Virus record (IMG/VR): IMGVR_UViG_3300009170_000002
Span: 1 to 54,268 of that record
DNA: 54,268 nt
DNA from: a virus
Taxonomy: Duplodnaviria > Caudoviricetes
Strand: one strand, 5' to 3'
A program made the translations under genes and the position numbers. The notes below the pieces were generated by a model, which ran no database searches, was not told the origin of the DNA, and saw nothing but the letters and a program-made list of their open reading frames with translations. Shown here in pieces: positions 3,126-44,966 of the stretch. The first letter of the stretch is position 1; every line of letters starts with the position of its first letter.

Positions 3126-3208
3126 AATGTAATGATTTGTCATACGATATTCATTACATTTCATTACATTGCTACTATGTACGCTGGGGTGGTTTGTATT
3201 AGAATTGT
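3126..3208 (+). promoter_or_regulatory. Family A promoter cassette, copy 5
   Basis: TGTAATG...CATTACA x2, TGTACG(3178)-N16-TAGAAT(3200). Confidence 0.8.
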
Positions 3209-3239
3209 CTCATAATCAAAATTTAGAGGAGAGACGATC

Positions 3240-3422
3240 ATGAAAACCTACGTACTAAAATTCAATTCTCAGGCAAAGCTCGAAAAGAAAGTTAAGGAAG
3301 TTTTTGGTGAGACCGCGACCATCGTAAACGGACGCGTTTTTGTCAACGATAAAGTTCTTCCACTCTCGATCGCATACACCGGCCAAATTGGTCCCCGAAC
3401 TTGGATGTTTCAGTACCGCTAG
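3240..3422 (+). CDS. Small hypothetical protein, 60 aa
   Basis: RBS gaggag; follows promoter copy 5. Confidence 0.7.
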   Translation: MKTYVLKFNSQAKLEKKVKEVFGETATIVNGRVFVNDKVLPLSIAYTGQIGPRTWMFQYR

Positions 3423-3432
3423 GAGCCACAAA

Positions 3433-3681
3433 ATGAAAAACCTTCTCACACTCATCGACTCCCGGAACCACCAGATTGTCAACTGCAACGGCGAACACCG
3501 AGCATCATATCTCTTGCGCCTGAAGAAAAACGCCCTCGTCTCCTTGGCCGCCAAAAAAGACGGGGGATATGATCCGGGTTTTTATGCCACCTTCACCAAG
3601 GTCGAACTTGTGTACCTCATCCTTCTCATTGAAAATTTCATCTGGACCAAGGGCCTCACGGAGAAAGCGAGCCTTTGGTAA
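3433..3681 (+). CDS. Small hypothetical protein (start refined to ATG 3433), possible Rho N-terminal-like helical motif
   Basis: RBS aggag at 3421; LxKxxLVxLA...TKVELV pattern. Confidence 0.65.
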   Translation: MKNLLTLIDSRNHQIVNCNGEHRASYLLRLKKNALVSLAAKKDGGYDPGFYATFTKVELVYLILLIENFIWTKGLTEKASLW

Positions 3682-3696
3682 ACCAAGGACGTGACG

Positions 3697-3734
3697 AAAA
3701 AAGAGAGTCTCAGATCACCGAGACTCTTTTTTTT
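3697..3734. terminator. Bidirectional rho-independent terminator between convergent early and late blocks
   Basis: A-tract, agagtctc-agatcacc-gagactct stem-loop, T-tract. Confidence 0.85.
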
Positions 3735-3737
3735 ATT

Positions 3738-3784
3738 GATGTATATTCTATCATCGGACTGCGCTGCGTGTCTCTGGTCCTCAC
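3738..3784 (-). repeat. Family B 47-bp element, copy 1
   Basis: GTGAGGACCAGAGACACGCAGC-N7-GATGATAGAATATACATC on the minus strand. Confidence 0.85.
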
Positions 3785-5022
3785 TGGGAGGTTGTTGGAG
3801 GTACCCCATTCATATAGGTTGCGAGATTGATTTGCTCATCTTCTTCACCAAAATACATTTTACCATTTATGAGTGCGGTACCGTTTTGGATGTTTACGAT
3901 ATTGGGGGATAATAAATCATTCTCATTGAACGTCAAGATCAAAAATCCCTGCTGCCAATGGTTGTTACTCGAGCCCGGAACTACGCCATTCGTTTTGCAA
4001 AGGCACCCGGGTGAGATACCCCAAATTACTTCTTTCCCTTCATAATTTTTTACCGTTCTTGTTACGGCCTCGATCCGATGGATGTGCCCCTGGATTGTTG
4101 TAACCGTATCACTCATGACGACCTGCCCCATGGTGGATCCGGGTGCTGCTCGGACCACGTTTCCGTGGATACATCGGATTTTTTCGCTCAACCAAAATTC
4201 TCCACTTGGATATCCGGGAATGTATTCGATGCCGATCCCCTCTAGGTCAAGGAGGCGTTCCACTGAGTAGGACGGGGGTGAACTCAACTCGTCGACGGAT
4301 CGCAAGTGATATCCTTGTTTTAGGTTCATGATGATCGAAGTTATAAGCCTCTGTTCGTGGTTCCCAGCAAGGGCGACGTGGACGGCATCAGAGGTTACTG
4401 ATTTGATTTTGGCCATAAATGTGGATGCTGAAATGATTGCGGGTTGCGTGGTGAAGTACATTTCGGGACTTCGTATAAACTTATCACTCCACTCGGCAAG
4501 ATCGAGAATGTCCCCCAACCAGATGACAAAATCAAAGTGGTATTCTTGTGCAATTTGGAAAACGATATCGAGGGCTCGTTGATCATGCATCGAAACCAAT
4601 TGGCCAGTATTCGTGTCCTTTAGGTACCCAAAATGTGGATCTGGGATGATCAATGCGGTTTGGGCTCCTCCAATTTTTGTTTTAGGTTGATGCAAAACGG
4701 GCGGCATGGTAATCTGGATTGGTGATATTACGGGCTCAAAAGAGATTGGGTTCTTTCTCGCTATCCAAACCTTGATTTGGTATAGGTTGGTTTTCTTTAT
4801 TTCGCCCTTATCATTTATGCTTCCCGAAATTTTGCCCTCAACAAATATGAGTTCTTTGGCCTCGTCTCGTCGTCCTATTTGCCACGTGTTGATTAGATAT
4901 CTTTCAACGATCCATTCTTCCTGATCGACCTCAAATTTTTCTAATATTTCACTCAATGTTTGGGGCATTTCATCCACCTGACCCTCGTCAAGTAGGACAC
5001 GAAAATTTTGTGTCTCTTCCAT
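3781..5022 (-). CDS. Calcineurin-like metallophosphoesterase
   Basis: Motifs DPH, GDILD, GNHE, IHG, GHIH. Confidence 0.85.
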   Translation of the reverse strand: MEETQNFRVLLDEGQVDEMPQTLSEILEKFEVDQEEWIVERYLINTWQIGRRDEAKELIFVEGKISGSINDKGEIKKTNLYQIKVWIARKNPISFEPVISPIQITMPPVLHQPKTKIGGAQTALIIPDPHFGYLKDTNTGQLVSMHDQRALDIVFQIAQEYHFDFVIWLGDILDLAEWSDKFIRSPEMYFTTQPAIISASTFMAKIKSVTSDAVHVALAGNHEQRLITSIIMNLKQGYHLRSVDELSSPPSYSVERLLDLEGIGIEYIPGYPSGEFWLSEKIRCIHGNVVRAAPGSTMGQVVMSDTVTTIQGHIHRIEAVTRTVKNYEGKEVIWGISPGCLCKTNGVVPGSSNNHWQQGFLILTFNENDLLSPNIVNIQNGTALINGKMYFGEEDEQINLATYMNGVPPTTSQ

Positions 5023-5400: not shown

Positions 5401-8400
5401 TTAGATAAAATAGCCGTAACAAATAGCATAACAGCCTGTTGCATTTGCTCCACCTACAATAATTTCTATGTCGCTATTGGTGGCATCGAGATTGACAATT
5501 CCCGATGAACTAGTGCTTATTGTCGAACTCAGTGATATCGCCCCTACAGGATAATTGGTATTAGACGAACCGCGTGCTCTTGCCCCAACGAAGTTACTCC
5601 CTCCAGCCGTTTGAATAGCTGACATTCTTATAGCAATTGCCTTAGCAGCGGAAGGTATACTACCATTATTCACATCTTGCATATCGAAAGGATAAGTACC
5701 CGTATTTCTCGATAATGACCCGTTCCAAGAATTGCCAGTAGTGTCCATCATAACAAATGGGTTCAAGGGAACGAATATGCAGCCAGCAGTTGAGTTGCGT
5801 TGATACTGACTTGATGTTGTTATTCCTCCAGTGATGGACAAAGTTGGATAACTTGTCGGTAATGTAAGACCGGATGTACCAAATGAGTTTAGATAAAGTT
5901 CTGCTATCTTCCCCGACCCGCCGTCTGACTTTAGCCTTAAATTTGAAACGTATTGCCCGGTAACTAACATTTGCATCGAGTATTCGCCGCTTGCCGCTTT
6001 TGTATTTATAATGCTATTAGAAGTTGAACCGTCCCACATAATATATGTTGAATTCGTTACATTGACGTTGCCATTAGTTGTAAGATTTACGCACCCTGGG
6101 ACTGTTAAAACGTCTTTGTAAATTAGTATTGAGCCAGCATGGATATACCCATCCGAACCTACACTCCACTGTTCTACGCCGCCATTGTATCCGGCAATTG
6201 ATCCAAAATAATCAGGGGCATCGTATTTTGAATAGATTTTTAGGCCTGTCGTGGGACTGCTAAACGTACCAGTGCCTTGATAAATTCCGCCATTCACGCC
6301 AAGAGTGAGAGCTTTTGTAAACTCAGCGCCAGTACTTGCATTGAACGTGAATACCGCATTACCGCCAGAGTCTTTGATCGTCAGGATACCGGACGCATCT
6401 AAGCCGATTCTCTCTGTCGTATTATTGCGTATCGAAAGTGCACCGCTGCTGATCAGGACATTCGACTTACTTACCGCAACTTCGCCAACTGTCAGGACAC
6501 CTGCCGATGTCAACCCGATAATTTCAGTGACGTTATTTCTTATCGATACCGCTCCACTGCTTATTAGAACATTCGACTTACCCGACCCAACTTCGCCAAC
6601 TGTCAAAATACCAGTAGATGCGAGATTGATCAACGTGGTTGTGTTATTGCGTATTGAAAGGCCACCGCTACTGATTATGACATTCGACTTGCTTGAATTC
6701 ACCTCACCTATTGTAATATCACCGTTCATGGCCCATTTCGCAATATTCACAGCTCCTGCCATAAACCTAATCCCGTTTGTGTCATCAATTGTAAGATATG
6801 AAGCAGACGGGTCATATTTGCCAAAGGCCGCTCCATAAGCCGTTGCCGAATAACCATAAACACCGTTCAGATTACCAATCGCAAAATGCTCAGTCCAGTC
6901 ATTATAGGTTTGTGAAAGACGGACATTTCCAACCAAAGTTGGTCCAAACGCTGACGGTGCACTTATTCCGGTTGTCGCATAAAGGTCTATAAATCCATGT
7001 CCCGCCTGTCGAGTATTTAAGACAGCATCCCCCTTTATCCATGCATTTGCTCCAGTTCCGTCGAGATTACGGGTAACGGTATATGAATAAGGGCCGACTC
7101 CACTAGGCCCTGACGTAATCCGCATGAACTCAACTTGTCCACCACCTTCGCAATAAATGGTATCATTATTCACCAAACTATTATGTTTTACATAAATCGT
7201 GGTATCACCGGCAGCCACGTCTGTAGTAAAGATTGTCGTGGGAGCAACCACAACTCGTCCACCAATTGTTGAGAGAACGTTTGCAGCAACCAAATTAGTC
7301 ACAATCAATTCCGCTGCATAAAGTGATAGATATTTTTTGGTTGGCGATCCCAATGAAATGTCATAATTTGTTACAGGGACGACATCATTTCCAGTTGGAT
7401 CAAGAAGAAGGTCACCGGTCGGAGCCATTGTAGCGTTCCCATTTATGTCAATCGTGACGTTCATATAATTTGAACCGTCGTACGATAATTTCATTTGGGG
7501 ATTTGCCGAGGCATTGATTATATTGGCCGTCCCATTCAATATGAGTGAACGGTCGTTTTTCAAAGTCATTATATCTTGCCAACTTGTCGTATAAAAACTC
7601 CACCTAAAATAGGCATTGGGGTCATTAGTCGGATTCGGTACACTAAAACGAAGGTCTTTATTCGAGTTTACTTGAAATTCGCCGGTTGACCACTGGGATA
7701 AGGATGCTGTATAAGACCCTGTTCTAAATCTTAGTTGCGTATCATTCGTTATATTCGATTCGCCAATGTCAATCCAAAACGAGCCCAAAGTTGCGCTGGA
7801 GTTGAGATACATCCTACCCGACGTAGTATGTAATTTCAGATCACTTGCTGTTTGGAACAGTTCGCCAAATATTGCGTCACTATAAGATAATTTTAATTGT
7901 TTATTCGTGCCTTCTCTTATGTCCACTCTGTAACCGGTCGGAGCGGCAACCCCAATCCCTATCGTATTCAACGATCCGGAGGCTACAAGAAGGTTTGTGT
8001 CTAATGCAATTCCACCATTCGCATCGGTAGCCAGAATGCTGGCGGCTGCTCCGGGATTGCTAGATGATGTGATTGCGTGACTGTGCGTTGTTCCTGAAAC
8101 TGAATTTGTTGATGAAACGTTTAGTGTTGAGGGCGTTCCCAAAACAATATTGTTGCTTCCATCTTCAGTGATACCGACGCCCAAAATGTCAGATACATCA
8201 ACAGTAATTGTGATCAGGTTGGTTCCCGCTACGGTATCAATTCCATCACCACTCGCTATTTTTATCCGGTTATTTCCGTCAACTGATACTACCGTATTTG
8301 CGTTATCTAAAAGGCCAGTGAATGCGACGTGATGGGCGGCCGCGTTCGCGGCATGAGCGGAGATATCAATCCCGTCAATCGTAACATTTGAAGCAACTGC

Positions 8401-30952: not shown

Positions 30953-31063
30953 TACCGGTCGCCAGAACACGGGCGGCATCACGAATTTCAAAACTCGTTT
31001 TGTACCGTGACAAATGTGTATTATAATGACCAAAGTAATTATTTTAGTGTTTGGGAGAATGTA

Positions 31064-31960
31064 ATGGCAGACGAGTCAGTTTTGAAAGTGGGTAACCCAC
31101 TCAAGAGGCACCCGGTAGAGACGGCCCTTTTGACGGGATTGGGATCGGTTGAGACAACGATTACCAAAAATAAATTTCATGGGGCGACGGTGGGCTTTTG
31201 CGCTCGTCAATCAATCCTACACACGATGGTTGACCCCAATTATTCCGAACTCGTATCACCGGCGAGTGCGTTCTATTTTGCAATTGGTTCAGCGATGCAT
31301 CAGGTCGTATCAGGGGGACTCAAGCGGGCAGGCATTCTGGTTTTTTCCGAATTAAAAATAGAGGCACCAGAATTTGGTCCACCAAAATTGGATCTCGTAC
31401 GCGGGTATGTCGATAACATAATTGAGATTGATGGCAAGTTGGCGATAACTGATGTGAAAAGTTGTGGGTCTCTGCCAAAGGAGCCGAAAATGGCTCACGC
31501 GGCACAGGCCCGTGCGTATTCTTTGATCACGGGAATTATGTCGGCCTATATTCATTACATCAGTCGGAGTGTCGCATCCTGGGATGGGAAACTGATCCAG
31601 GCGGTTTTGAAGGTGGACAATTCTAAAACGGCAGTTACGATGACTGCAACGGAAATGGCAAAGAGTCATGTTTTTGCTCAAGAAGATTTGCTCCCTCCAA
31701 TTCCTCCGCACATTACGAACCAATCAAAATGCGGATTTTGTCCATTCAAGGCATTTTGTTGGGAGGGCGACGAAACGATCCCCATTGACGATAACCTAAA
31801 TTGTTTTCCAGAAATGGCTACCGTCGAGGCGCTTATGCTCGAAGTCGATGAGTATGCCCAAAAGTACATTGATGGGATACCGACTCGTCGTGAAGCGATT
31901 ATGGAAAAAATAAATTTCGCCAGGGAGTTTGACGATCCTGAAATGAAGGGGCACGCATAA
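31064..31960 (+). CDS. Cas4-like PD-(D/E)XK exonuclease with Fe-S cysteines (start refined to ATG 31064)
   Basis: GFCAR, G.AMH, GYVD...DVKS, Q...Y, CGFCPFKAFC. Confidence 0.85.
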   Translation: MADESVLKVGNPLKRHPVETALLTGLGSVETTITKNKFHGATVGFCARQSILHTMVDPNYSELVSPASAFYFAIGSAMHQVVSGGLKRAGILVFSELKIEAPEFGPPKLDLVRGYVDNIIEIDGKLAITDVKSCGSLPKEPKMAHAAQARAYSLITGIMSAYIHYISRSVASWDGKLIQAVLKVDNSKTAVTMTATEMAKSHVFAQEDLLPPIPPHITNQSKCGFCPFKAFCWEGDETIPIDDNLNCFPEMATVEALMLEVDEYAQKYIDGIPTRREAIMEKINFAREFDDPEMKGHA

Positions 31961-32226: not shown

Positions 32227-32677
32227 TCCTTGTCCATTATGCGGCGGTGAACTTACCCAGGGTATTTCATCAATCGAAACAGCCCAATCCACTTTGGCTT
32301 TTCATTATGTAATTTGTGAGAATATCGTTGACCTTCATGGGTTCGAACAAGAATGTGAATTTTGGCATGTGTCGGGTTCTGCTGACGCCATGTTCGTTGA
32401 ATTGAATTTGAAACGAGGGATGACTGTTCGACGTGATCACCAATTGGTCCTTCCATTGAGGATGCCCCAAAGTGAGTCAAATCAAACTGTTTGGCCATTG
32501 GTAATCGGCGACATGGTTGACCGGATGGAGTATGGACGGCAAAAGTACGGAGTGGATTTGAAGCCATTTGACGGTCGTGACACTCTGGTTGACGCCTATC
32601 AAGAAGCCCTTGATTTGGCCGTTTATTTGAGAAAAGAGATTTTTGAACGAGATAACAAAATAAAGGAAATTTCATGA
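32216..32677 (+). CDS. Zinc ribbon plus MazG-like helical nucleotide pyrophosphatase domain (start refined to ATG 32216)
   Basis: CPLC N-terminus; R..YG.QKYG...DAYQEALDLAVYL motif. Confidence 0.65.
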   Translation: MSNNPCPLCGGELTQGISSIETAQSTLAFHYVICENIVDLHGFEQECEFWHVSGSADAMFVELNLKRGMTVRRDHQLVLPLRMPQSESNQTVWPLVIGDMVDRMEYGRQKYGVDLKPFDGRDTLVDAYQEALDLAVYLRKEIFERDNKIKEIS

Positions 32678-33630
32678 CACGTCTTTCTGTTGCTCAAAGT
32701 GTTCTTTATGATGCCCCCCGAACAATTTATTTTTATGCAACCTCATATTGTAATTCCAATTGTTCATATTGCATTTTTAGGAATTCGAACTTGGAGATGA
32801 AGCGAGAGCATCTTCCCCTTGATCTTCTTAAGAAAGTTGTCAAAGAGTCAAATCTTCTGAAACGCACGTCTTGGGTAATCCAGGGTGGCGAAATTGGCGA
32901 GCATCCACAGGCGGCTCAAATTGCAGAATTTTTACACCTAAATGGGCACTTCGTAACCTTGTTGACCAATGCGATCCACATTCCCAGTTCAATAAGAATG
33001 CTTCCATTTGTTGATGCGATCACAATTTCATTTGATGGTCGCCGTCATGATATCGTGAGAGGTGCCCCCGGAAATACGGAGTCAATTTTCGAATACATCA
33101 AACAGGTGCGCGAAAAGGCAATCAATCCAGTTGACCTCACACTCCAGATGACTTTGGGACCTTGGAATACGAATTTGGATGAGGTCATATATGTAAAGGA
33201 ACTCGCCGATGAACACCACGTTGGTTTACGTATCAATGTGGCATCGGACACTGGCGTTTTAGGTAATGGTAACTATACCCAAAATATTGAGAAGCTTGCC
33301 AAAATTGAGGTGTATTTCGAAAGTGAAGGCGAAAATTTTACGGCACGCTATCTTCGTGAATATGTCAAACACCTCAAAGGCGAACGATTGCCCTGTGTTT
33401 CGACTTCAATTTATTCGACGATCCTCCAGGACGGAAGGGTTCTTCTGTGTCAGGGATTGGATACTGAAGAGGCAACGATTGGGAACCTGCACGATAACAG
33501 ATTTGACGATATTTGGAATTGGGCCATGGACACCCGAAAAGAGCTTCGAACGTGCAATAAATGTGGGCTTTCATGTCAGTTGATGGGAGATATAAAATTC
33601 GATGAAACCTTCTATGCGCCGGAAAGTTGA
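32674..33630 (+). CDS. Radical SAM protein with SPASM/twitch domain
   Basis: CNSNCSYC (CxxxCxxC), GGE, LTN, ISFDG...HD.VRG; C...DG.V..C...IGNL...IW...C..C...C. Confidence 0.9.
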   Translation: MTRLSVAQSVLYDAPRTIYFYATSYCNSNCSYCIFRNSNLEMKREHLPLDLLKKVVKESNLLKRTSWVIQGGEIGEHPQAAQIAEFLHLNGHFVTLLTNAIHIPSSIRMLPFVDAITISFDGRRHDIVRGAPGNTESIFEYIKQVREKAINPVDLTLQMTLGPWNTNLDEVIYVKELADEHHVGLRINVASDTGVLGNGNYTQNIEKLAKIEVYFESEGENFTARYLREYVKHLKGERLPCVSTSIYSTILQDGRVLLCQGLDTEEATIGNLHDNRFDDIWNWAMDTRKELRTCNKCGLSCQLMGDIKFDETFYAPES

Positions 33631-35464: not shown

Positions 35465-35535
35465 TGTAATGCGAAAATCATTACATTTGTCATATTTTAT
35501 TATATGTACTTTTTTCTAAATGTGTAGTAGAATTG
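35465..35535 (+). promoter_or_regulatory. Family A promoter cassette, copy 6
   Basis: TGTAATG..CATTACATTTGTCAT, TGTACT(35505)-N17-TAGAAT(35528). Confidence 0.7.
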
Positions 35536-35577
35536 CATCATTCAAGGATAAAAATTTTTAGAAAAGAGGATAAGAAA

Positions 35578-36825
35578 ATGTTACGAGCCGTGAAGCACAC
35601 CGTTTTAGTGAAAGTTCTTGGAGGAAATAAAGCCCAATTGGTGCATGGTCATCCGTGCATGTGGGATAAGGTCACCGTTTTCAACCACACGAAATTCGGA
35701 CCAGTTGCGATTGGCAAGCAAATTTCCGCAACTTTTTCAGTTACCCCCAAGAGGCGCTATCTTTTAGGAATTCGTGAGTGGGAAACCTCTCTAACCGTGG
35801 AAGAATTCCAGGCGAACTACTCCTCGACTTTGGCGAAGCAAGCCGAAGCTCATGCGAAAGTCGCACGAGAAGATTGGGGAATTGAGACCATCACCCCCCC
35901 AACCGCAGCATTCACTCGTCCTTCAGAGCCCGTTTTTGAAATGAATTCATCTCCATTTCCAGTCGAAGCCCCCAAAGCAGCAGTCCCCAACGTTCTTCCA
36001 AAGGGGAAAAGCGTCAAGGCAGTTTGGCAGGACGGAGTTTATCTTGATCATGACGCAATGAAAGTTTTTGGAACCGCCCTTGCACTTGCGAATGCTGGCG
36101 AGACCGTCAACGTCCTGATGGTTGGTCCTAGCGGTTACGGAAAAACGACCATCCCCGAGAAGGTTGCACGCACCAACGGAATGGACGTTATCCGGATGAA
36201 CTGCGCGGCAGTAAGAGACCCAGAAGAATGGTTCGGTTATCGTGAGGCAGTTGATGGATCGACCGTTTTCGTCCCAACCGAATTCACCAAAACCATCATC
36301 GGCGGGAATGCGATCGTAATTTTGGACGAGTTCAATCGCGTAGAACCATGGTTGACCAACACACTTTACCCACTTTTGGACGACGCACGAAGCACCTTGG
36401 TTCACGGCGAACGGATCACTTGCGGAGAGAACCTCATCTTTGTAGCGACGATCAACCAAGGTTTTGAGTTTACCGGAACCTTCGCTTTAGATGCAGCACT
36501 CACCAATCGCTTCGATATGATTGTCCACGTTTCAGCACTCCCTCAGGATATCGAAGAAGAAGTTTTGATCACTCGAACGGGAGTCACCCCTGTAACTGCG
36601 AAAGTGATTGTGTCAATCAACAATGCACTTCGGTTGATGGTGATGGACGGCAAAATCGATATCGATCCGAGCACAAGAACCTCGATCAAAATCGCCAAGA
36701 TGGTTAGTGGCGGGATCATGAGCCTTAAGGATGCGTTCAAGTTTGTGGTAATGAATTCTGCTCAAGACGGAATTCGCGAAATAAACGATGTCATCAATAT
36801 CGAACTTTCGAAAGTGAACCCCTAA
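35578..36825 (+). CDS. MoxR/CobS-like AAA+ ATPase (start refined to ATG 35578)
   Basis: GPSGYGKT, ILDEFNR, ATIN, LDAALTNRF, STR motifs. Confidence 0.9.
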   Translation: MLRAVKHTVLVKVLGGNKAQLVHGHPCMWDKVTVFNHTKFGPVAIGKQISATFSVTPKRRYLLGIREWETSLTVEEFQANYSSTLAKQAEAHAKVAREDWGIETITPPTAAFTRPSEPVFEMNSSPFPVEAPKAAVPNVLPKGKSVKAVWQDGVYLDHDAMKVFGTALALANAGETVNVLMVGPSGYGKTTIPEKVARTNGMDVIRMNCAAVRDPEEWFGYREAVDGSTVFVPTEFTKTIIGGNAIVILDEFNRVEPWLTNTLYPLLDDARSTLVHGERITCGENLIFVATINQGFEFTGTFALDAALTNRFDMIVHVSALPQDIEEEVLITRTGVTPVTAKVIVSINNALRLMVMDGKIDIDPSTRTSIKIAKMVSGGIMSLKDAFKFVVMNSAQDGIREINDVINIELSKVNP

Positions 36826-37151: not shown

Positions 37152-39299
37152 ATGAGGACACGGAACACGCAGGAATGGTATAAAATGATAAGGAAAGAAA
37201 TTCCCACGGTTGTCACATCGCGGGAGTTCGTCACTTTTGCAGCTTCTGTCTCCGGTTTTATCCGCGAGATTGTTCCCTCCAAGCCGTTTCCAGTCATTGG
37301 GATTACAAATCATGACTCAGCATACTGCGACCGCGGGAACGGAAAAATTTTCTTCCCAACCTCTTATTTCTCACAGGATTTTGTTGAACTTCAAGACGAT
37401 GAGGAACCTTCTCTCGTTTCTCTCGCGATGATCAACGGATCAGCAATTCACGAATGTCTCCATTGGGTTTATTCTCCACTGGATATCGAGGATTTTTTCA
37501 ACTTTTCCGCAGGCGGCAAGGAATTCTTCACCAAGACAGTGGACGTCAGAATTTCCTCGGCAGTCGTCAACGTCATCGAAGATCTTTTTATCGAGTCGCA
37601 GGCAGCCCCATTTTTTGTCCCAATTCTTCATGACAAGAATTCATTCACGGTTTCACAAGATCATTTTGAAATGATGAAAACCTCGGTCACCAAAGTCGAC
37701 CTCATCACTGCAGCAAAAACCTTGGTTTTCTTCAAGAATACGGATCTTCGAGATGATGAATTTTGGTCCCTCTACCCCATCGAGGCAGTCGAAGCTCTGA
37801 TCGAAGCAACCGAATTGAAAAGAAATTATTTTGGAGATCGATCACGATTGGCGAAGAAATTCATTGAAGCTTTCTTGAATGCAGCGGAAGCCGAAAGTGA
37901 ACCGGAACCAGAGGTTGAAGACGAGAGCGAGCCAGAAACTTCCGATGAGAACGAGTCCGAAAGTGAACCACAAACCGACGAGTCCGAGAGTGAAGACGAG
38001 TCCAAGAGTGAAGACGAGTCCGAGAGTGAAGACGAGTCCGAGAGTGAAGACGAGTCCGAGAGCGAGGGTGAGTCCGAGAGCGAAGGCGAGTCCGAGAGCG
38101 AAGATGGTTCTGAAGGTGAAGAAGAGTCCGAAAGTGAAGCTGAAGTTGAAGGTGAAACCGAAAATGAAGGTGAGTCTGACGAAGAAACCCCCGGTGATAG
38201 TGAGTCCGATGGCGAAACTGATGATGAGTCCGAAATTGAAGGAGATGCACAAGGTGAAGTTGCGGACGAACCAACCGATGACGAGAGACTCGCAGAACTT
38301 GGTGAGTACGATCCCAAATTTGGTGCCCAGGGTGCAGAAGAAGTTGAACTTTCCCCAAAAGAGATCAAAGCGATGGCGGAATTCCAAGCCAAAGTCAATG
38401 AAGATCTTCAGAAAGATTTGGAAAAGATCGAGATTACCAAAGGTCGATGTCCAGTGAAAGTCAATAAGCCCCAAACTTTCGAAGCAAAAGATTATCCTTA
38501 CACAAGAACTACTGCAAGGGTTCATGCATCAACCAATTGGGGTTTTGTAAAGGAATTACGAGCACGATTTGCACAACGAGTTCCCGGACAAGCATCAACT
38601 CGCGGACCACAACTCGTAGGAACGAGACTTTCACGAATTGCAACCGATGGAAAAGTGTTCGCATATTCAGCGAACCTCGAAAAAGTTGCCGATCCAGAGA
38701 TCATCATTTTAGTCGACATCTCGGGTTCAACTACAACCCCAATTCACGAGACTGAGGGATTTGAAGGAGCTACCGATTACCTTTCACTTTTCCAGGCACT
38801 CCTTGCAACAAGCGAAAAAATCCACGAAGCACTTCGCGAAGCGAGAATTCCAAATGTGGTAATCACCCACACGAGTGACGAAAGCGGAACGATCCCTACC
38901 TTAGGAATTGTTTCATCTTACGGAATGAAAACCGGAACGACGACAAATTCAGAAAAAGAATTTGATCGAGCATTCAATTTTTACACATCGGAAAATTATG
39001 ACGGTGTGGTTCTTCGAGAAGTTACAAAGAGTTTCTCTGAAAAACCGGGCAATAAGGTAATCATCGTTTTATCAGATGGCGAACCAGCGGGACGCGATGG
39101 ATACAACGGACAGGTTGCAAGAGAGCACACAATCAAGGAGGTTCAATCATTACGAAAAGAAGGATATAAGGTTTTCTCAATTTCAGTTTCAAGTTCAGTT
39201 GTCCGATCGAACGATCTTTTCTACGGAAAAGAATTCAATGTGGACGCCTCCTCAAATTTGAGGACTTCATTCGAGAACGTAATCAAGAAACTTTTTTAG
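37152..39299 (+). CDS. CobT-like VWA protein: HExxH domain, acidic linker, MIDAS VWA domain
   Basis: HECLH, NVIED.FIE, E/S/D-rich linker, LVDISGS, ENYDG, VLSDGEP. Confidence 0.88.
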   Translation: MRTRNTQEWYKMIRKEIPTVVTSREFVTFAASVSGFIREIVPSKPFPVIGITNHDSAYCDRGNGKIFFPTSYFSQDFVELQDDEEPSLVSLAMINGSAIHECLHWVYSPLDIEDFFNFSAGGKEFFTKTVDVRISSAVVNVIEDLFIESQAAPFFVPILHDKNSFTVSQDHFEMMKTSVTKVDLITAAKTLVFFKNTDLRDDEFWSLYPIEAVEALIEATELKRNYFGDRSRLAKKFIEAFLNAAEAESEPEPEVEDESEPETSDENESESEPQTDESESEDESKSEDESESEDESESEDESESEGESESEGESESEDGSEGEEESESEAEVEGETENEGESDEETPGDSESDGETDDESEIEGDAQGEVADEPTDDERLAELGEYDPKFGAQGAEEVELSPKEIKAMAEFQAKVNEDLQKDLEKIEITKGRCPVKVNKPQTFEAKDYPYTRTTARVHASTNWGFVKELRARFAQRVPGQASTRGPQLVGTRLSRIATDGKVFAYSANLEKVADPEIIILVDISGSTTTPIHETEGFEGATDYLSLFQALLATSEKIHEALREARIPNVVITHTSDESGTIPTLGIVSSYGMKTGTTTNSEKEFDRAFNFYTSENYDGVVLREVTKSFSEKPGNKVIIVLSDGEPAGRDGYNGQVAREHTIKEVQSLRKEGYKVFSISVSSSVVRSNDLFYGKEFNVDASSNLRTSFENVIKKLF
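37977..38102 (+). repeat. Seven 18-bp tandem repeats encoding (D/G)ESESE
   Basis: gacgagtccgagagtgaa and variants, x7. Confidence 0.9.
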
Positions 39300-39309: not shown

Positions 39310-40005
39310 ATGGCTGCAAAAAGTGTAATTCGTAAGGGTACCAAGGTTTTAGAGGGTGGAGGTTCAAGTCAATTCATCGGGATCGAACCCGACGCCGCAA
39401 TCGTCGTTGCGCCCCTTGTGGGAATGGACGAAATGATCAGCATTGATCTTCACTCATTTTGGGAGATCAATCCGGCAGTCCACCTTGTTTGCCTCGGAGA
39501 CAATTGCCCGTGCTGCACTTTGGGTAATGAGTCCGGTTTCAAGGCCTACTTACCGGTCCTGACACGCGAGGGTGAGTCCAAAATCTTTGCATTTGGAATT
39601 GGGGTTGCTCGCCAGTTTTCGGAATTGGAAGAGGAAGTTGGCTCTTTGGCTGGTAAGTTGGTCAAAATTCGGCGCGCTGGATCGGGTTTACGAACTCGAT
39701 ACACGGTTACCGGTTTAGGGAAGTCGATTGACATCTCCACCGCAACCCCCGCTGATATCGAGTCTCAATTGGGACCATTCGATCTTCCCGCAATTATCCG
39801 GAAATTGGAAGAGAATGGATTGGCAGAAGCTGAACAATTCGAAGATTTGCTTCCTTCTAAGAAGGAAAAGCCAGAACCAAAGGCAAAGAAAACTGCCGAA
39901 CCTGCCCCGAAGGGTAAGAAACCCGTCAAGCCCGCTCCCGAAGAAACGGAGAAAAAGGCTGATGATTGGGAAGATGGCGAAGAGTCTGAAGATTGGGATG
40001 CCTAA
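39310..40005 (+). CDS. Single-stranded DNA-binding protein (phage type, Zn-binding, acidic tail)
   Basis: H...C....CPCC, KIRR.GSGL.TRY OB-fold motif, acidic C-terminus DDWEDGEESEDWDA. Confidence 0.75.
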   Translation: MAAKSVIRKGTKVLEGGGSSQFIGIEPDAAIVVAPLVGMDEMISIDLHSFWEINPAVHLVCLGDNCPCCTLGNESGFKAYLPVLTREGESKIFAFGIGVARQFSELEEEVGSLAGKLVKIRRAGSGLRTRYTVTGLGKSIDISTATPADIESQLGPFDLPAIIRKLEENGLAEAEQFEDLLPSKKEKPEPKAKKTAEPAPKGKKPVKPAPEETEKKADDWEDGEESEDWDA

Positions 40006-40007
40006 CA

Positions 40008-40679
40008 ATGAACGAGATGCTTGAGAGTCAAGAGATTTTGATGCGACTCCTGGGCGTTACGGAAAGAGATGGATCCCCCTCAAAAGGGGTCCATCAATCT
40101 CTTATTTTATCCGCAACGATAGGAATGGCAGTGGAAGCAGCTGAAACGCTCGATGAACTTAACCGTGCAAATCGCCCATGGAAACCTACTTCATTGAATA
40201 TGGCTGCTTTCCTCGAAGAAATGACTGATGTAGTGTTTTACATCTTAGAGGATTGCGTCCTTCTGGGCCTCACTGAGAGGCACCTGGCTATGTTGTATGA
40301 ACACAAGTACCTTAAGAATTTATGTCGTATTGTTGAGCGTCTCGAAAGGTCGCAAATCATTTCCATATTTTACAGCATTTTGGAAATAAGAATAAGGGTT
40401 CCTGACTTTAAGATAACTGACTTAACGGAACCATACGGGGCCGATACGATGATCTTGTCATCTGATGATAAACCACTCGGATGGGAAAGTACATTTTGTA
40501 CTGCTGCTGACGAATTGATTAAGAGGCCGTTTTTGGGTTTGATGACATTCGATAACATTGCCGAATTCTCTAAAGATCCCAAGGCCTATTTGGAGGACTG
40601 CTATGGACGTTATGAACCTTATCAAGAAATGCTCCGAATGTCGGAATTGCGATGGGGCGGCTTTCCAAACGAGGCCTAA
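40008..40679 (+). CDS. Dimeric dUTPase/dCTPase-like (all-alpha NTP pyrophosphatase) protein
   Basis: E.AE.LDEL....PWK and EEMTDVVFY...Y..K...N..R motifs. Confidence 0.75.
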   Translation: MNEMLESQEILMRLLGVTERDGSPSKGVHQSLILSATIGMAVEAAETLDELNRANRPWKPTSLNMAAFLEEMTDVVFYILEDCVLLGLTERHLAMLYEHKYLKNLCRIVERLERSQIISIFYSILEIRIRVPDFKITDLTEPYGADTMILSSDDKPLGWESTFCTAADELIKRPFLGLMTFDNIAEFSKDPKAYLEDCYGRYEPYQEMLRMSELRWGGFPNEA

Positions 40680-41226
40680 CCTCGGATGCGGAAACCCTAA
40701 TGCGCCAATTTTGGTTCTCGGATCCTCACCTCAATTGATAAAATCGACTGATCGATTTGGGCTCCAGTCTCTGGAAATTTTGGAGATGGCTTTGGAGAAT
40801 TCGGTAACCGATACCCAAATTTCGTCAATTGCCCAATTTTGGTATGATCTTGAATTCATGACGTCGTTCACCTATACGAGGATCGGGCATATTCTCGGTC
40901 CTCGTTGGTTGGAAACCGGTGATTATTACTACACGACTGCCGTACGATGCCGAACATTCCAAAATCAGGCACCATCAAATGAGATGGTTGAGAAATGTAG
41001 AGAGTTCACAGATGAGCTTCTAGTGGGCCGAGATGCGACAATCTTAATTGGTCGTCTTCCCGTAATTCAACTACTTCAAGAGAAAAGCGACGATCTACAA
41101 CCAGGCGATTTGCGAAACCACAAACATTTTGGTAAACTTTTGGCATTGAAACACCATGCCCATTGGCGACAAGTTGATGTGGACATATACACCTCATTGG
41201 TAAAAAATTTACGGAGAGAGATATAA
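40603..41226 (+). CDS. Divergent family-4 (Fe-S) uracil-DNA glycosylase-like protein (start refined to ATG 40603)
   Basis: CSEC, G.GNPNA.ILVLG.SP, AVRCR....P...E.C, LIGR, H motif; RBS ggagg. Confidence 0.75.
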   Translation: MDVMNLIKKCSECRNCDGAAFQTRPNLGCGNPNAPILVLGSSPQLIKSTDRFGLQSLEILEMALENSVTDTQISSIAQFWYDLEFMTSFTYTRIGHILGPRWLETGDYYYTTAVRCRTFQNQAPSNEMVEKCREFTDELLVGRDATILIGRLPVIQLLQEKSDDLQPGDLRNHKHFGKLLALKHHAHWRQVDVDIYTSLVKNLRREI

Positions 41227-42515
41227 TGTTGAGAGCTGATACCATCATCTTAGGTGGCGGTCTTTCTGGTTTGACCTTGCTAAAGGAACTTTCTGGTGAT
41301 GCAATTCTTATCACCAAAAATGTCGGAGGTCTTATCCAAAATTACGTGACACCAAATGGATTTTCGTTTGACCTTGGTGGTCACGTATATAATTCATCAA
41401 ATCCAGATATCGAAGAGGTCATGAACGTTATCCCCAACACACTTCATTCCCATAGGAAGTCATGGTGGATAAGGAGTGGGACCTTCAACGAATCGGAAAA
41501 GTATACATTCCCGGTGCAATCATCAATGCGTTCACTGGTAACCGATACCCCACAAGACACGAGTTGGTCACCCAACCTTGAGGATTACAGCATCAAAATT
41601 TTTGGTGAAGCATTCACCGAAGAATTCTTCCGTCCATTCAATGAGAGGGTGTGGACAACCGCACTTTCAGATTTGGATGTCGATTGGGTCAAGGGACGTG
41701 TTCAGCACCCACGTGAGTTTAGTGACAAGAATTGGGGACTGAATTCGTCCTTCTATTATGCCCCTGGATCAGAGATCGTAAAATATTTCCTTAAGGATTT
41801 TAGTAACAATATCATCAACGGTACCGTCCTCTCAGTCAATCTAGGGGATAAAACCGTAAGGTACCAGGACGATTTGAGTGGCGTGATCTATTATGTGAAA
41901 TATAACCGGTTGATTGACACGACGGGTCGTTTCCTTGAAGGGGAAAGCATCTTAAGGAGAAACTACATTGCCTATTTTGGAGTTGGTGTTGAGGGTTCTC
42001 CGGCGTATGACTTTCACTGGTGTTACGGCCCGTTTGATCAAAGCGTTCACCGCGTAACACTTCTCAGTTCATACCATCCTGGGCTTGCTCCATCTGGAAC
42101 GCATTCGTATCTTATGGAAATTCCATTTTCGAGCGAATACCGAAGTCCGTGGATCATATCAGTTTTACTTCGAGCAATGAAGACAAAACCAAACTCGTCA
42201 ATCCTCAAATTTGCCGCTTCGGCCGCTTTACGTACAGCGGGCTTTCCAATCGAGAAGGAAAAGGTGATTGATGTCTGGGCAAAAGTTTCATTGGGATACC
42301 CGGTGCCGATGGTGGGATCACGGAAGGTTGTCGCTCAAATCAAAGAAAAACTTTTCAACCAAAATGTATTTCTGGCTGGAAGATGGGGAGCGCACGGATA
42401 TTGGAATTGGGAGCACATCGTCACCGATGCTCGTGTTGTTCGCCGACTTTTGAACGATTACAGTCAAGACAACCTCAACCACTATCTCACTTCTGATTTT
42501 TATTATAAGGTGTGA
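41226..42515 (+). CDS. FAD-dependent UDP-galactopyranose mutase-like enzyme (fungal/protozoan-type motifs)
   Basis: IILGGGLSG, GFSFDLGGHV, FFRPFNERVW...W..GRV, WG.NSSF, GYPVP, GRWG...Y.N. Confidence 0.75.
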   Translation: MLRADTIILGGGLSGLTLLKELSGDAILITKNVGGLIQNYVTPNGFSFDLGGHVYNSSNPDIEEVMNVIPNTLHSHRKSWWIRSGTFNESEKYTFPVQSSMRSLVTDTPQDTSWSPNLEDYSIKIFGEAFTEEFFRPFNERVWTTALSDLDVDWVKGRVQHPREFSDKNWGLNSSFYYAPGSEIVKYFLKDFSNNIINGTVLSVNLGDKTVRYQDDLSGVIYYVKYNRLIDTTGRFLEGESILRRNYIAYFGVGVEGSPAYDFHWCYGPFDQSVHRVTLLSSYHPGLAPSGTHSYLMEIPFSSEYRSPWIISVLLRAMKTKPNSSILKFAASAALRTAGFPIEKEKVIDVWAKVSLGYPVPMVGSRKVVAQIKEKLFNQNVFLAGRWGAHGYWNWEHIVTDARVVRRLLNDYSQDNLNHYLTSDFYYKV

Positions 42516-42516
42516 C

Positions 42517-43017
42517 ATGGGAAAATTGATGATAATTGAAGGTCCACGGTGTTCTGGAAAGACGACATTGGCTCAAACCTCTATCAGATTTGGGTACAAA
42601 AACATGAAAGTGTCTCGTGGTTCAAATCCATTTGAGGACATGACGAATTGGATTAGGGCAATCAGCAGCGGTAATGAGAACATAATCTTCGACAGGTTTC
42701 ACCTAACTGAATTCGTTATGGGGTTACAAGACGGAAGATCAGGTGCGAATTACTTATATAACTTTACATTGAGCGTCGACATGATGATTAAGCATAAAAA
42801 GTGGGATACGATCATTTTGCTGCCATCCGTCGAGGTTCTTGAAAAAAGGCTTGCATCAAGGAACGACGGTCGAGGGTATGACATGCCCCCCGTTTTGGCT
42901 CACCAATTGTGGGAACTGACCGCAACACTTTTCGATATCCCCGTTTTCAAAAATGAGAACGATGACGACTTTGCATTTGTCGCTTCTTTTGTTGAAAGGA
43001 AAATTAGGAATGGCTAA
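42517..43017 (+). CDS. dNMP (thymidylate-like) kinase
   Basis: IEGPRCSGKTT P-loop, IFDRF, L.KRL..R lid. Confidence 0.85.
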   Translation: MGKLMIIEGPRCSGKTTLAQTSIRFGYKNMKVSRGSNPFEDMTNWIRAISSGNENIIFDRFHLTEFVMGLQDGRSGANYLYNFTLSVDMMIKHKKWDTIILLPSVEVLEKRLASRNDGRGYDMPPVLAHQLWELTATLFDIPVFKNENDDDFAFVASFVERKIRNG

Positions 43018-44020
43018 AAAGATTGGATTTTTTACCTGGCAACCGGGCCTTCATTCAGATCAGGCCAAGGATAGTGCAGGCGGAGCAGCGTGGACTCGTT
43101 TCCTTTTCGATAATTTCATTCGATCTGGATACGAGATCATTTGGCTCACGGACAGCAATCCACCTTCAGAAACTCGTATATCACAAGTTGAGGAATGTGA
43201 TATAATCTTCTTATGTTGGAGATGGCAAATGCCCGAGTACCCTGAACGAAATGAATTATATCTTCGCCAAATGGAAATTCTTTCCAAGGCAAACGATGCA
43301 AATATTCGTGTCGTCATCCATGATGAAGATCATAAAATTTCCGATCTCGATCTGGAATTTATGAGAAATAGAGTTTTGCGAGATCGTATCATTCTTACAA
43401 CCCCGGAAATTTATCCACGCGATGGGTTCAAGACGTTATTCTTCCCAAACCCCCATACCAAAATGTTGGGATACAATCGTGGATATCCATTTATGACCGA
43501 ATGGGCAATGACCTATGTTGGGAACGTTTATGAAAGATACGAGCAAGCAGTGAAATTCTTTGCCCCCTTCAGTGTGAGACACAAAACACGCGTTTTTGGC
43601 AATTGGTTGGAACCCGGTCCTGGCCGTCCTGGTGAGAAGAAAGTTAGAAATGATATGCCTCACGTCCGTTTCCCAGGTCGACTTTCACAAGGCATGATCA
43701 GTTCGGTAATGATGGAGTCATCGACCACTGTTCATCTCTTCAAAGAAAGTTATGCAAAAACCGGATTTATGACGATGCGATGGGCAGAGGCTGCGGCAAG
43801 TGGCGTTCCAGCATTCGTCCCAGATGACTTCAACCTCGATAAAAAATTATATTCTGTTCTCCGCGAATCGCTTTTTATCGTGAGTGATGGAGAAGAAATG
43901 GCAAAAAATTATGATAAGATGACGGACAAGCAATGGGTGACCGCACTTTCGGCCCAACAGTTATGGGTTACCGAAAACATGAAAGTTGACAATTGGATGA
44001 ATTTCATTAAGGAGCTTTAG
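43010..44020 (+). CDS. T4 beta-glucosyltransferase-like DNA glycosyltransferase (start refined to ATG 43010)
   Basis: YVGN, VFGN, F.GRL, Y...GFMTMRW.E..AS, DDF resemble the C-terminal domain of T4 BGT. Confidence 0.7.
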   Translation: MAKKIGFFTWQPGLHSDQAKDSAGGAAWTRFLFDNFIRSGYEIIWLTDSNPPSETRISQVEECDIIFLCWRWQMPEYPERNELYLRQMEILSKANDANIRVVIHDEDHKISDLDLEFMRNRVLRDRIILTTPEIYPRDGFKTLFFPNPHTKMLGYNRGYPFMTEWAMTYVGNVYERYEQAVKFFAPFSVRHKTRVFGNWLEPGPGRPGEKKVRNDMPHVRFPGRLSQGMISSVMMESSTTVHLFKESYAKTGFMTMRWAEAAASGVPAFVPDDFNLDKKLYSVLRESLFIVSDGEEMAKNYDKMTDKQWVTALSAQQLWVTENMKVDNWMNFIKEL

Positions 44021-44021
44021 C

Positions 44022-44966
44022 ATGTACAAATATTTTACGCCAAGAAATTATGGCCGACTTTTGGAATGGATCGTGGCCACTGGTGAGGTGGTAAGTCCCA
44101 ATGGAGAAAAGACGGTAGAGGTTTTGAATGCCCCTCTTCTTCTCCGTGATCCTCGCGATCGGATCATAATCAATCAAAATCGGAAAGTCAACCTGGCTTT
44201 TGGGGTTGCTGAATGGTTGGGAATTTTGATGGGAGAGGCGCGCGTGTCGTTTTTCCAAACTTATATCAGTAATTATGATAAGTATTCATCTGACGGCATC
44301 TATGTCGATGGCGCTTACGGGCCACGAATTGTTGGCGAGATTGACCAAATTGAAAAGGTAATTGAATTGTTAGGGAAGGATAAAAATTCTCGACGTGCGG
44401 TAATTTCCTTTTATGATGGGAAGATTGACCTCAATGGCGGTGGCGGAGTGAACACCCCTTGCACGTTATCAATGCAATTCATTGTTAGAGAAAATAAGCT
44501 TCATTCGATTGTCACGATGAGATCGAATGACATCGTTTGGGGGTTGACATACGATCTTTTCGTTTTCACGATGATCCAAGAATACGTGGCGAGACGGTTG
44601 GGTTTGATTTTGGGAAGATATTATCATAATGCCGGATCACTCCACCTGTACGAGCGTCACTTTTCGATGGCTGATGACATCATTGCCCAACCAGAAAATA
44701 GGTGGACAATTGTGATGCAGGAAATGCCCGCAATCGGTAACGTTGAGTTGATCCGTCTTTGGAACCTTTACACTGACCCGTTCAACGTCGACAATGAGGA
44801 CCTCATTTCAAGAATGTATTCTCAGTTCGCCAAAAATCTTGGTTATCTGGCCCTTGCCTTTATCAATCGAAAGAGCCCTGATCTTTTCGAAAAGTATTAC
44901 AAACTTTGCACCGATTACACGATTAGGAAAACCCTTCGCCCTTGGGCAACCGACCAGGAGAATTGA
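44022..44966 (+). CDS. Thymidylate synthase homologue with dCMP-type specificity (dCMP hydroxymethylase/hydroxylase-like)
   Basis: GAYG.R, SRRAV, TPC, MRSND..WG..YD (Asp where dUMP enzymes have Asn), SLHLYE.H. Confidence 0.85.
   Translation: MYKYFTPRNYGRLLEWIVATGEVVSPNGEKTVEVLNAPLLLRDPRDRIIINQNRKVNLAFGVAEWLGILMGEARVSFFQTYISNYDKYSSDGIYVDGAYGPRIVGEIDQIEKVIELLGKDKNSRRAVISFYDGKIDLNGGGGVNTPCTLSMQFIVRENKLHSIVTMRSNDIVWGLTYDLFVFTMIQEYVARRLGLILGRYYHNAGSLHLYERHFSMADDIIAQPENRWTIVMQEMPAIGNVELIRLWNLYTDPFNVDNEDLISRMYSQFAKNLGYLALAFINRKSPDLFEKYYKLCTDYTIRKTLRPWATDQEN

Follow-up and report, generated by a model that had tools for sequence, protein, structure and literature searches.

Introduction

Whether restriction enzymes, type IV systems, DNA glycosylase defences and Cas nucleases can attack a phage depends on glycosylated cytosines, which also serve as tools in the detection of 5-hydroxymethylcytosine (5hmC). 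In phage T4 the roles needed for such a base are those of gp56 (dCTPase), gp42 (dCMP hydroxymethylase), gp1 (dNMP kinase) and the glucosyltransferase BGT. According to a recent article, the DNA of RB69 and DLP3 carries arabinofuranosyl-5-hydroxycytosine (Lee et al., NAR 2026; PMC13326640). The same authors propose that a phage mutase supplies UDP-galactofuranose (UDP-Galf) in Rhizobium phage RL38J1 and other Pootjesviridae; the base-proximal sugar of RL38J1 is galactose on 5-hydroxycytosine (5hoC), and its gp84 is annotated as UDP-galactopyranose mutase (UGM). Here we describe a module of six genes in the IMG/VR virus record IMGVR_UViG_3300009170_000002, taken over its whole length of 54,268 bp (hereafter the window), in which genes for a UGM homologue, a BGT-like glycosyltransferase (GT) and a thymidylate synthase (TS) homologue lie together upstream of dnaE.

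An earlier note on this DNA, made from the sequence alone, had proposed a furanosyl-cytosine pathway and knew of no described mutase-fed route in a small DnaE siphovirus. The latter statement has been overtaken, as Lee et al. propose such a route for RL38J1 and the Pootjesviridae, and as the Lactobacillus phage ATCCB (MK504445) has TS, BGT and mutase (Glf) genes side by side. For the window we consider it probable that 5hmC is made before replication and glycosylated afterwards. The full proposal, a two-stage cytosine hypermodification of the T4 type with its own furanose donor supplied by the mutase, is the reading towards which we lean.

Results

The TS homologue is a predicted dCMP 5-hydroxymethylase

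The TS homologue is the sole TS-family gene in the genome and matched Pfam PF00303 (Thymidylat_synt) above the cut-off (E 2.3e-24). Its best PDB match was MilA (E 3.9e-34), the CMP 5-hydroxymethylase of mildiomycin synthesis, while T4 gp42 was matched at E 1.4e-11. To compare active sites, the window protein was aligned (MAFFT) with E. coli ThyA, T4 gp42, RB69 gp48, both TS-family genes of RL38J1, three other phage enzymes and five relatives from the same clade; positions are given in E. coli numbering. The window protein and all five relatives have C146, R166, S167, N168, D169, G173 and D177, and the catalytic residue C146 and also R126 were invariant in the TS alignments. The window motif MRSNDIVWGLTYD is present in the translation, as are all other motifs quoted in the earlier note. 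Position 177 is Asp in the window, the five relatives and T4 gp42, and Asn in E. coli ThyA and the canonical ThyA of RL38J1; Asp177 selects cytosine in the TS family (PMC13326640).

A different product would be expected if the enzyme were of the RB69/RL38J1 type, that is, a flavin-dependent 5-hydroxy-dCMP synthase whose product receives the sugar in ether linkage to the C5-OH. RL38J1, the only phage system with a proposed mutase-fed galactose, does use 5hoC. The 5-hydroxy-dCMP synthases carry D169N, which was proposed as diagnostic, and nine of nine further D169N homologues tested made 5hodC (PMC13326640). However, D169N is absent here: the window and its five relatives have RSND and G173, as does T4 gp42. 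RSQN and V173 are found instead in two verified 5-hydroxy-dCMP synthases, RB69 gp48 and the divergent enzyme of RL38J1. Since D169 is retained, the predicted product is 5-hydroxymethyl-dCMP (5hm-dCMP) and not 5-hydroxy-dCMP. We consider 5-hydroxycytosine chemistry very improbable and rejected it on the D169 signature. Thus, of the two bases that the earlier note had allowed, 5hmC was retained on account of the Asp169 that the enzyme has in common with T4 gp42, and 5-hydroxycytosine, which goes with the Asn169 of RB69 gp48 and RL38J1, was dropped.

The enzyme might also use uracil nucleotides and make dTMP or hm-dUMP, or, like MilA, use CMP, with no replacement of cytosine in the DNA. The rank of MilA among the PDB matches points that way, as do the annotation of several tblastn matches of the TS homologue as thymidylate synthase or dUMP hydroxymethyltransferase and its being the only gene of its family in the genome. 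Asp instead of Asn at position 177 nevertheless favours cytosine, and the immediate neighbours are a dNMP kinase and a DNA polymerase. Moreover, Ser167 and Arg126' mark deoxyribose-specific enzymes, while the ribose-preferring MilA and BcmA have Ala and Lys, and the exchange A176S/K133R flips the substrate preference of MilA (PMC5175136). In our alignment MilA shows MRAND and SKRAV, i.e. Ala and Lys where the window has Ser167 and Arg126. Specificity for CMP was rejected on these two residues, and we give the uracil and CMP activities together hardly any credence. The best reading of the TS homologue is therefore that of a putative folate-type dCMP 5-hydroxymethylase, making 5hm-dCMP.

A long-form UDP-galactopyranose mutase homologue

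The flavoenzyme encoded in the module matched 14 eukaryotic UGM sequences in a phmmer search of the PDB (E 5e-17 to 2e-15, residues 4-393), those of A. fumigatus and T. cruzi at E 5e-17, whereas bacterial UGMs scored E 0.014 or worse in the same search. With E. coli Glf it aligned over the first ~150 residues only (pairwise E 2e-4). An AlphaFold2 (AF2) model built from 22 homologues had a pLDDT of 90.9. In a Foldseek search with this model the first 21 matches listed (to rank 27) were all chains of A. fumigatus or T. cruzi UGM (E 4e-30 to 8e-27, TM 0.72-0.79), and the next classes were protoporphyrinogen oxidase (1e-19) and bacterial UGM (3e-17).

The residues needed for flavin and substrate binding were also found. 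The Pfam domain NAD_binding_8 scored above the cut-off, and G10, G12, G15, G51, G52 and H53 were invariant in the 22 sequences; we take the GxGxxG Rossmann start to be FAD-binding and GGH to be the flavin-side His loop, both presumed hallmarks of UGMs. The translation contains FDLGGHVY, FFRPFNERVW...W..GRV, NWGLNSSF, GYPVP and GRWGAHGY. Residues H63, R182, N207, W315, Y317, R327, R447 and Y453 of A. fumigatus UGM (AfUGM) correspond to H53, R158, N173, W265, Y267, R276, R386 and Y392 of the window protein, as counted by hand in the HMMER alignment with an offset of 3, and all eight window residues were invariant in the 22 family members. Y358 was kept in at least 90% of them; its AfUGM counterpart is Tyr419, which we take to be a substrate-binding residue. 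The family consensus VPYPVQ, with invariant P96 and Q98, was read as the uracil-stacking motif of AfUGM Tyr104/Gln107, although HMMER places the stretch a few residues off.

The roles of several of these positions have been described. In one study, Arg182 and Arg327 are critical for placing the diphosphate and the galactose, Asn207 lies within 3.5 Å of the galactose C4-OH and is replaced by Phe in prokaryotic UGMs, and Trp315 is not conserved in prokaryotic UGMs (PMC3322874). The T. cruzi counterparts of the UGM substrate residues, including Tyr395, are also known (PMC4192007). By these residues, the phage protein retains all that a UDP-hexopyranose mutase needs for catalysis and for binding its substrate. 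Since every mappable residue that contacts UDP-galactopyranose (UDP-Galp) is kept, a furanose donor is the most economical reading of its product.

The family is large. A profile search of 1.84 billion representatives (50%-identity clusters) gave 7,142 proteins with scores of E <= 1e-3, of which 527 reached E <= 1e-30. In the ESM Atlas, bacterial clusters automatically named protoporphyrinogen oxidase had TM values of 0.81-0.84 to the mutase, and in one of them 99% of the members have Glyco_trans_1_4. Distant long-form UGM-like members are fused to DUF707 or DUF3431 (P0076, 1551 aa; P0095, 651 aa; P0105, 704 aa), two domains that we take to be glycosyltransferase-like. As the protein has many bacterial relatives, we make no claim to a eukaryotic origin. 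For the same reason 'long-form UGM' is preferable to the 'fungal-type' UGM of the earlier note, which was right in so far as phmmer, Foldseek and the residues all identify a eukaryote-type homologue. As a side observation, the bacterial 'protoporphyrinogen oxidase-like' family, which is widely misnamed, may largely consist of sugar-nucleotide mutases.

A word-based search gave 33 mutase homologues (23-39% identity), 30 of which form a close group (30-39%, E <= 5e-43), and many of the homologues lie on contigs of 45-58 kb. A single-sequence scan of IMG/VR for the mutase found nothing, whereas an alignment-based scan found three loci. A tblastn search of 50,697 GenBank phage records gave no match to the mutase, and thus no cultured relative was found there.

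The glycosyltransferase is a distant relative of T4 BGT

As a single sequence the GT had no match in the PDB. A profile of 15 homologues, searched against 177,635 PDB sequences, gave two matches, both to T4 BGT (E 9.2e-8; family positions 149-331 to BGT 171-348), and hhalign aligned the family with T4 BGT at E 1.3e-5. The AF2 model (pLDDT 92.3) had T4 BGT at Foldseek ranks 1-4 (E 3.3e-11 to 8.7e-10, TM 0.62-0.68 over ~370 columns; best TM 0.68/0.65), at an identity of ~15%. R257 is invariant and E260 nearly invariant, and they align with R and E of the BGT stretch 'TLRVWET' (family 'T(l/m)RWAEA'). The matches by profile and by structure justify the label BGT-like, which the earlier note had given to this transferase; the Foldseek runs that it had suggested thus placed eukaryotic UGM first for the mutase model and T4 BGT first for the GT model. 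A tblastn search with the GT against the same 50,697 phage records gave no match.

BGT is an inverting enzyme. If the GT inverts likewise, UDP-alpha-D-Galf would give beta-galactofuranosyl-hmC.

Mutase and GT might instead serve an acceptor other than DNA (a glycan on the host surface, a protein of the virion or a small molecule, for instance), with the TS homologue, the kinase and the MazG-like enzyme making plain 5hmC DNA. The N-terminal, i.e. acceptor, domain of the GT has no match to BGT at the sequence level, and after BGT Foldseek gave pterin glucosyltransferases, Gtf3/GtfC, SenB and T4 AGT; the GT-B enzymes acting on pterins, serine-rich proteins and small molecules ranged from E 1e-9 to 1e-6. 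Against this, T4 BGT is the best full-length structural match of the GT and its only profile match, and the GT gene, which shares 8 bases with that of the kinase and lies 1 base from the TS homologue, keeps this position in relatives. We therefore regard a non-DNA acceptor as quite unlikely, and 5hmC in DNA remains the preferred acceptor.

Nucleotide-pool and UDG-fold proteins

The first gene of the module encodes a MazG-like protein of the all-alpha NTP pyrophosphatase type (phrog_173, E 5.6e-4; also phrog_229). A profile of four orthologues matched the nucleotide pyrophosphohydrolase 5ie9 in the PDB (E 0.036), and hhalign aligned the protein with T4 gp56 over 41 columns (E 7.9e-5, probability 61%). 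The database scores are weak; E43, E46, E70, E71 and D74 are invariant in the four orthologues and form what we take to be the ExxE...EExxD metal-binding motif of MazG and gp56. The first ~120 residues alone are common to the relatives. An hhalign comparison of the MazG family with the 'ntP-ppase-like' protein of MW202657 gave nothing.

The second gene encodes a protein related to uracil-DNA glycosylase (UDG), with matches below the cut-off to Pfam PF03167 (E 2.4e-4) and TIGR00758 UDG_fam4 (E 5.3e-8) and a profile match in the PDB to the uracil-DNA glycosylase 4zbx (E 2.3e-5). C10, C13, C116 and C132 are invariant in four orthologues and presumably ligate an Fe-S cluster. The catalytic motif GE(A/G)PG is not kept: 4zbx has GEAPGE, whereas the window has GSSPQL, L001 and L002 have AQNPGE and L003 has AKAPSS (for these loci see the next section). 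With GSSPQ in place of GEAPG, the protein has a UDG fold but is not a canonical uracil glycosylase. The kinase was matched by phrog_761 'thymidylate kinase' (E 3.2e-9) and has the Walker A motif GPRCSGKT.

Genome layout and conservation of the module

The record is that of a complete virus with direct terminal repeats (an exact 123-bp repeat). The minus strand holds the genes for terminase, portal, protease, major head and tape-measure proteins, the last of these being the one finding that bears on the word siphovirus in the earlier note; the module sits in the plus-strand early and replication block. As the earlier note had described, the six genes are tightly coupled upstream of dnaE: six open reading frames (ORFs) on the plus strand run head to tail from 40008 to 44966 (Table 1). 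The MazG-like gene overlaps the ATG of the UDG-like gene by 77 bases, and the junctions from the UDG-like gene to dnaE are 1-base gaps, a 1-base overlap or, between kinase and GT, an 8-base overlap. The GT start at 43010 matches an identical 336-aa protein in a protein collection. Genes for a DnaB-like helicase and then a primase follow dnaE.

Table 1. Position and assignment of the module genes and of neighbouring features in the window
Feature	Position	Strand	Basis or remark
MazG-like NTP pyrophosphatase, candidate dCTPase	40008..40679	+	PHROG, hhalign, invariant acidic residues
Family-4 UDG-fold protein, degenerate catalytic motif	40603..41226	+	ORF opens 40558; likely ATG 40603
Long-form UDP-galactopyranose mutase homologue (predicted UDP-sugar pyranose/furanose mutase)	41226..42515	+	phmmer, Foldseek
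P-loop dNMP kinase-like protein	42517..43017	+	phrog_761, Walker A
GT-B glycosyltransferase, distant T4 BGT homologue	43010..44020	+	ORF opens 42953; likely ATG 43010
Thymidylate-synthase-family enzyme, predicted dCMP 5-hydroxymethylase	44022..44966	+	Pfam PF00303, active-site residues
DnaE-type DNA polymerase III alpha	44968..47775	+	Translation; ATG 44968, 1-base gap after TS homologue
Single-strand binding (SSB)-like protein, conserved upstream neighbour	39310..40005	+	Weak PHROG single-strand DNA binding matches, E 5.5e-4; syntenic in relatives
Radical SAM/SPASM protein	32674..33630	+	Pfam PF04055 E 4.1e-11, PF13186 E 5e-6
MoxR/CbbQ-type AAA+ ATPase	35533..36825	+	PF07728 E 8e-14, CbbQ_C E 6e-6
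715-aa protein with C-terminal von Willebrand factor A (VWA)-like domain	37152..39299	+	Long acidic Ser/Glu/Asp repeat
Cas4-like PD-(D/E)XK exonuclease	31007..31960	+	phrog_1706 E 5.8e-18
Small TnsA/VRR-NUC-like endonuclease	49839..50204	+	

To assess conservation, 16 related loci were compared, 3 from IMG/VR and 13 from metagenomes, with BLASTP of the module proteins against six-frame ORFs. The gene order was MoxR, VWA, SSB, MazG, UDG-like, mutase, kinase, GT, TS homologue and DnaE throughout, and the same order was found in relatives at 28-45% identity. The UDG-like gene lies directly upstream of the mutase gene in 12 related loci. A GT is present in all eight loci in which the sequence continues for 1.7 kb or more beyond the mutase (seven if the near-identical L002 and L019 are counted once) and also on the short contig L023, and the TS homologue followed by DnaE was found in six of the six loci that reach that far, with one short ORF between them in L002 and L019. 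The combination for which the earlier note had suggested a neighbourhood search (UGM, BGT and TS) is kept in the clade and recurs as an adjacent trio in ATCCB. A kinase orthologue occupies the same position in L001, L002, L011, L012, L015, L016, L019 and L023, and L015 has two kinases. Loci L013, L014, L016, L017, L020, L021 and L022 end too soon to be judged. In L003 a P-loop kinase is fused to the N-terminus of the MazG-like protein (6501-7373) and there is no separate kinase between mutase and GT; judged from the sequence, this fusion is a Rosetta-stone link between two nucleotide-pool enzymes.

The radical SAM/SPASM protein has orthologues in the clade (42-47% identity), and its position varies. 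In the window it lies 7 kb upstream; in L018 it stands between kinase and GT (3041-4012, 42% identical), and in L001 (13451-14452) and L002 (15774-16784), i.e. genomes G001 and G002, between DnaE and DnaB. No orthologue was found in G003. It may provide an additional tailoring step, a link that is speculative.

At the nucleotide level, blastn of the module DNA against GenBank phages gave no match. The window DnaE matched DnaE-like polymerases of Streptomyces phages in tblastn (32% identity) and was at most 33% identical to that of any GenBank phage. A PADLOC scan of the module gave no match except weak viperin-like matches for the radical SAM protein, and an NCBIfam scan gave sub-threshold matches only, which placed the radical SAM protein in no subfamily.

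Some further genes of the block were recorded as side observations. The MoxR-type ATPase is paired with the 715-aa protein, and in L001, L003, L013 and L015 the two are likewise kept ahead of the SSB gene. The replication block is flanked by the Cas4-like exonuclease on one side and by the small TnsA/VRR-NUC-like endonuclease on the other.

Proposed pathway and its weighing

Sequence comparison and the predicted models document the families to which the TS homologue, the mutase and the GT belong and the conservation of their active sites; with the synteny, this leads to the following scheme. In a first, pre-replicative stage, the MazG-like enzyme would hydrolyse dCTP to dCMP, the TS homologue would convert dCMP to 5hm-dCMP with methylene-tetrahydrofolate, the P-loop kinase would phosphorylate hm-dCMP towards the triphosphate, and DnaE would put 5hmC in place of C. 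In a second, post-replicative stage, the long-form UGM homologue would convert a host UDP-pyranose, most likely UDP-Galp, to the UDP-furanose, and the BGT-like GT-B enzyme would move the furanose onto the hydroxymethyl group of 5hmC in DNA to give galactofuranosyl-hmC. The modification would shield the phage DNA from restriction and CRISPR nucleases. We infer the roles in the first stage from family membership and active-site residues, and likewise infer dCTP hydrolysis by MazG, the action of the kinase on hm-dCMP, incorporation by DnaE, the substrate of the mutase and hmC in DNA as the acceptor of the GT. The T4-like logic that the earlier note had recognized, with an NTP pyrophosphatase, a cytosine-specific TS homologue, a kinase and a BGT-like transferase, is borne out. 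More tentatively, the virions of the whole clade may carry 5-(galactofuranosyl-oxymethyl)cytosine in place of C, attached by a BGT-derived DNA galactofuranosyltransferase from the donor of a eukaryote-like UGM, and the radical SAM and UDG-fold proteins may tailor or proofread the modification; we put this forward as a possibility that we would not yet back.

Several points weigh against the furanosyl-5hmC scheme. The modified base, the sugar (Galf or arabinofuranose, Araf) and the acceptor are all computational predictions. The genes were seen together in a single clade of phages whose replication modules are syntenic, which reflects shared descent and not an independent association of the genes. 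The assignments of the MazG, UDG and kinase genes rest on weak scores. In the TS homologue, entry of water, and with it a hydroxymethyl instead of a methyl product, is said to depend on a polar or acidic side chain at position 143, which is Asp in T4 and Glu in RB69. Within the clade this position falls in a gapped, poorly aligned loop and varies: the window, L001 and L002 have Asn, L003 has Asp, L015 has Ile and L018 has Ser. The D169N rule comes from a single paper. By sequence, the GT aligns to BGT in its C-terminal, UDP-binding half alone. The N-terminal domain, which in BGT holds the catalytic base Asp100 (a D100A mutant is named in a PDB entry title), gave no such alignment; in this domain of the GT, D105 and D107 are invariant and follow the strand 100-104. 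As to the DNA itself, six-base palindromes showed no avoidance (mean z -0.18), a value that is uninformative for a 54-kb genome, and in the window TTAA (78 observed against 213 expected, z -9.2) and CATG (z -4.8) were depleted.

A further such point concerns the sugar. T4 BGT, the closest structure to the GT, takes UDP-glucose, so the window GT need not use the product of the mutase. The phage might accordingly make T4-like hmC with an ordinary pyranose, glucose or galactopyranose, from a host UDP-sugar, the UGM homologue serving Galf elsewhere or in a non-DNA role. The ATCCB GT, which stands beside a Glf, is a close T4 BGT homologue (31% identity over the full length), and in Streptococcus suis phage records Glf lies at the extreme end (e.g. 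58230-59318 of 59334 bases), where a role in DNA is not evident. However, the mutase gene is flanked by the UDG-like gene and the kinase within an operon of nucleotide and replication genes, a place that it keeps in 12 related loci, and no further GT was found among 28 window proteins scanned, which represent part of the genome. We consider an ordinary pyranose unlikely, and the furanose made by the phage mutase remains the preferred sugar.

Comparison with known systems

If the proposal is true, the idea of a mutase-fed donor extends from the 5-hydroxycytosine myoviruses (2026) to hmC in an unrelated clade with small genomes. The base would then be the first furanosyl-hmC, a new entry in the catalogue of bases, and the GT would be the first member of the BGT lineage to transfer Galf. 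The six genes would make a compact cassette for expression in E. coli, and a concrete function could be given to one branch of the large, misannotated 'protoporphyrinogen oxidase-like' flavoenzyme family.

The mutase has the fold of the eukaryotic UGMs and the same substrate-binding residues, including Trp315 and Asn207. The phage protein, however, is ~80 residues shorter (429 against 510 aa), is ~20% identical to them and forms part of a large radiation in prokaryotes and viruses whose members are mostly auto-named 'protoporphyrinogen oxidase'.

Bacterial-type mutases occur in other phages. In a tblastn search with E. coli Glf, 90 phage records were matched, among them 22 of Rhizobium, 19 of Aeromonas, 5 of Agrobacterium and 5 of Streptococcus phages. 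The 19 Aeromonas phage records with Glf are candidates for another furanosyl DNA modification. In the T4-like Aeromonas phage AS-gz (NC_042019; L031, 5992-10774), the genes after Glf encode three proteins of 318-348 aa that lack annotation, along with one short ORF.

In ATCCB, genes 0045-0047 (L008, 4043-7098) encode a TS homologue, a 'beta-glucosyltransferase' and a UDP-galactopyranose mutase side by side, and in the TS homologue D143, D169 and D177 make up the signature of a dCMP hydroxymethylase. The mutase, with 54% identity to E. coli Glf, is of the bacterial type, and the GT matches T4 BGT closely (E 5e-49). Neither BLASTP of the window GT against ATCCB_0046 nor hhalign of the GT family against it gave significant similarity, so the two GTs are not orthologues. 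From its sequence the ATCCB trio looks like a cultured, unstudied candidate for mutase-fed hmC glycosylation. In literature outside the subscription journals, the phage name ATCCB did not occur among the matches listed, and a search for phage glf together with a DNA glycosyltransferase and thymidylate synthase gave no match. The pairs of mutase and transferase in ATCCB and AS-gz suggest that furanosyl DNA modifications may be commoner than reported.

For RL38J1 too, Lee et al. propose that a phage mutase feeds UDP-Galf to DNA glycosyltransferases and that a C5-oxygenated cytosine comes from a TS homologue and a kinase. With 45% identity to E. coli Glf, its mutase is of the bacterial Glf type, whereas that of the window belongs to a different UGM branch, and its Asn169 TS makes 5hoC, whereas Asp169 of the window predicts 5hmC. 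Moreover, the RL38J1 mutase gene lies >60 kb from that of the 5hodCMP synthase in a ~158-kb myovirus, while the window genes are contiguous in a 54-kb genome. RB69 and DLP3, according to the same article, likewise place a furanose on a C5-oxygenated cytosine through a TS homologue, a kinase and DNA glycosyltransferases; their donor, however, comes from an NDP-arabinose pathway (isomerase, kinase and nucleotidyltransferase) and not from a mutase, and their base is 5hoC from a flavin-dependent D169N enzyme.

With T4 the window has the same four predicted roles, the gp42 signature C146, S167, D169, G173 and D177 in the TS homologue, and a motif block of the pyrophosphatase in common with gp56. 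Unlike the window, T4 has no sugar mutase and takes UDP-glucose from the host, its genes are scattered, and its polymerase is of family B, whereas the window genes form a compact operon before DnaE. The window TS homologue is also nearer to MilA than to gp42, and the module includes a UDG-fold gene. What is new compared with all these systems is, judged by sequence, the use of a different UGM branch together with a very divergent BGT relative, neither of which was matched in the GenBank phage records, a base predicted to be hmC rather than 5hoC, and a module that lies in one operon with DnaE replication genes and is syntenic in a clade of uncultured DnaE phages.

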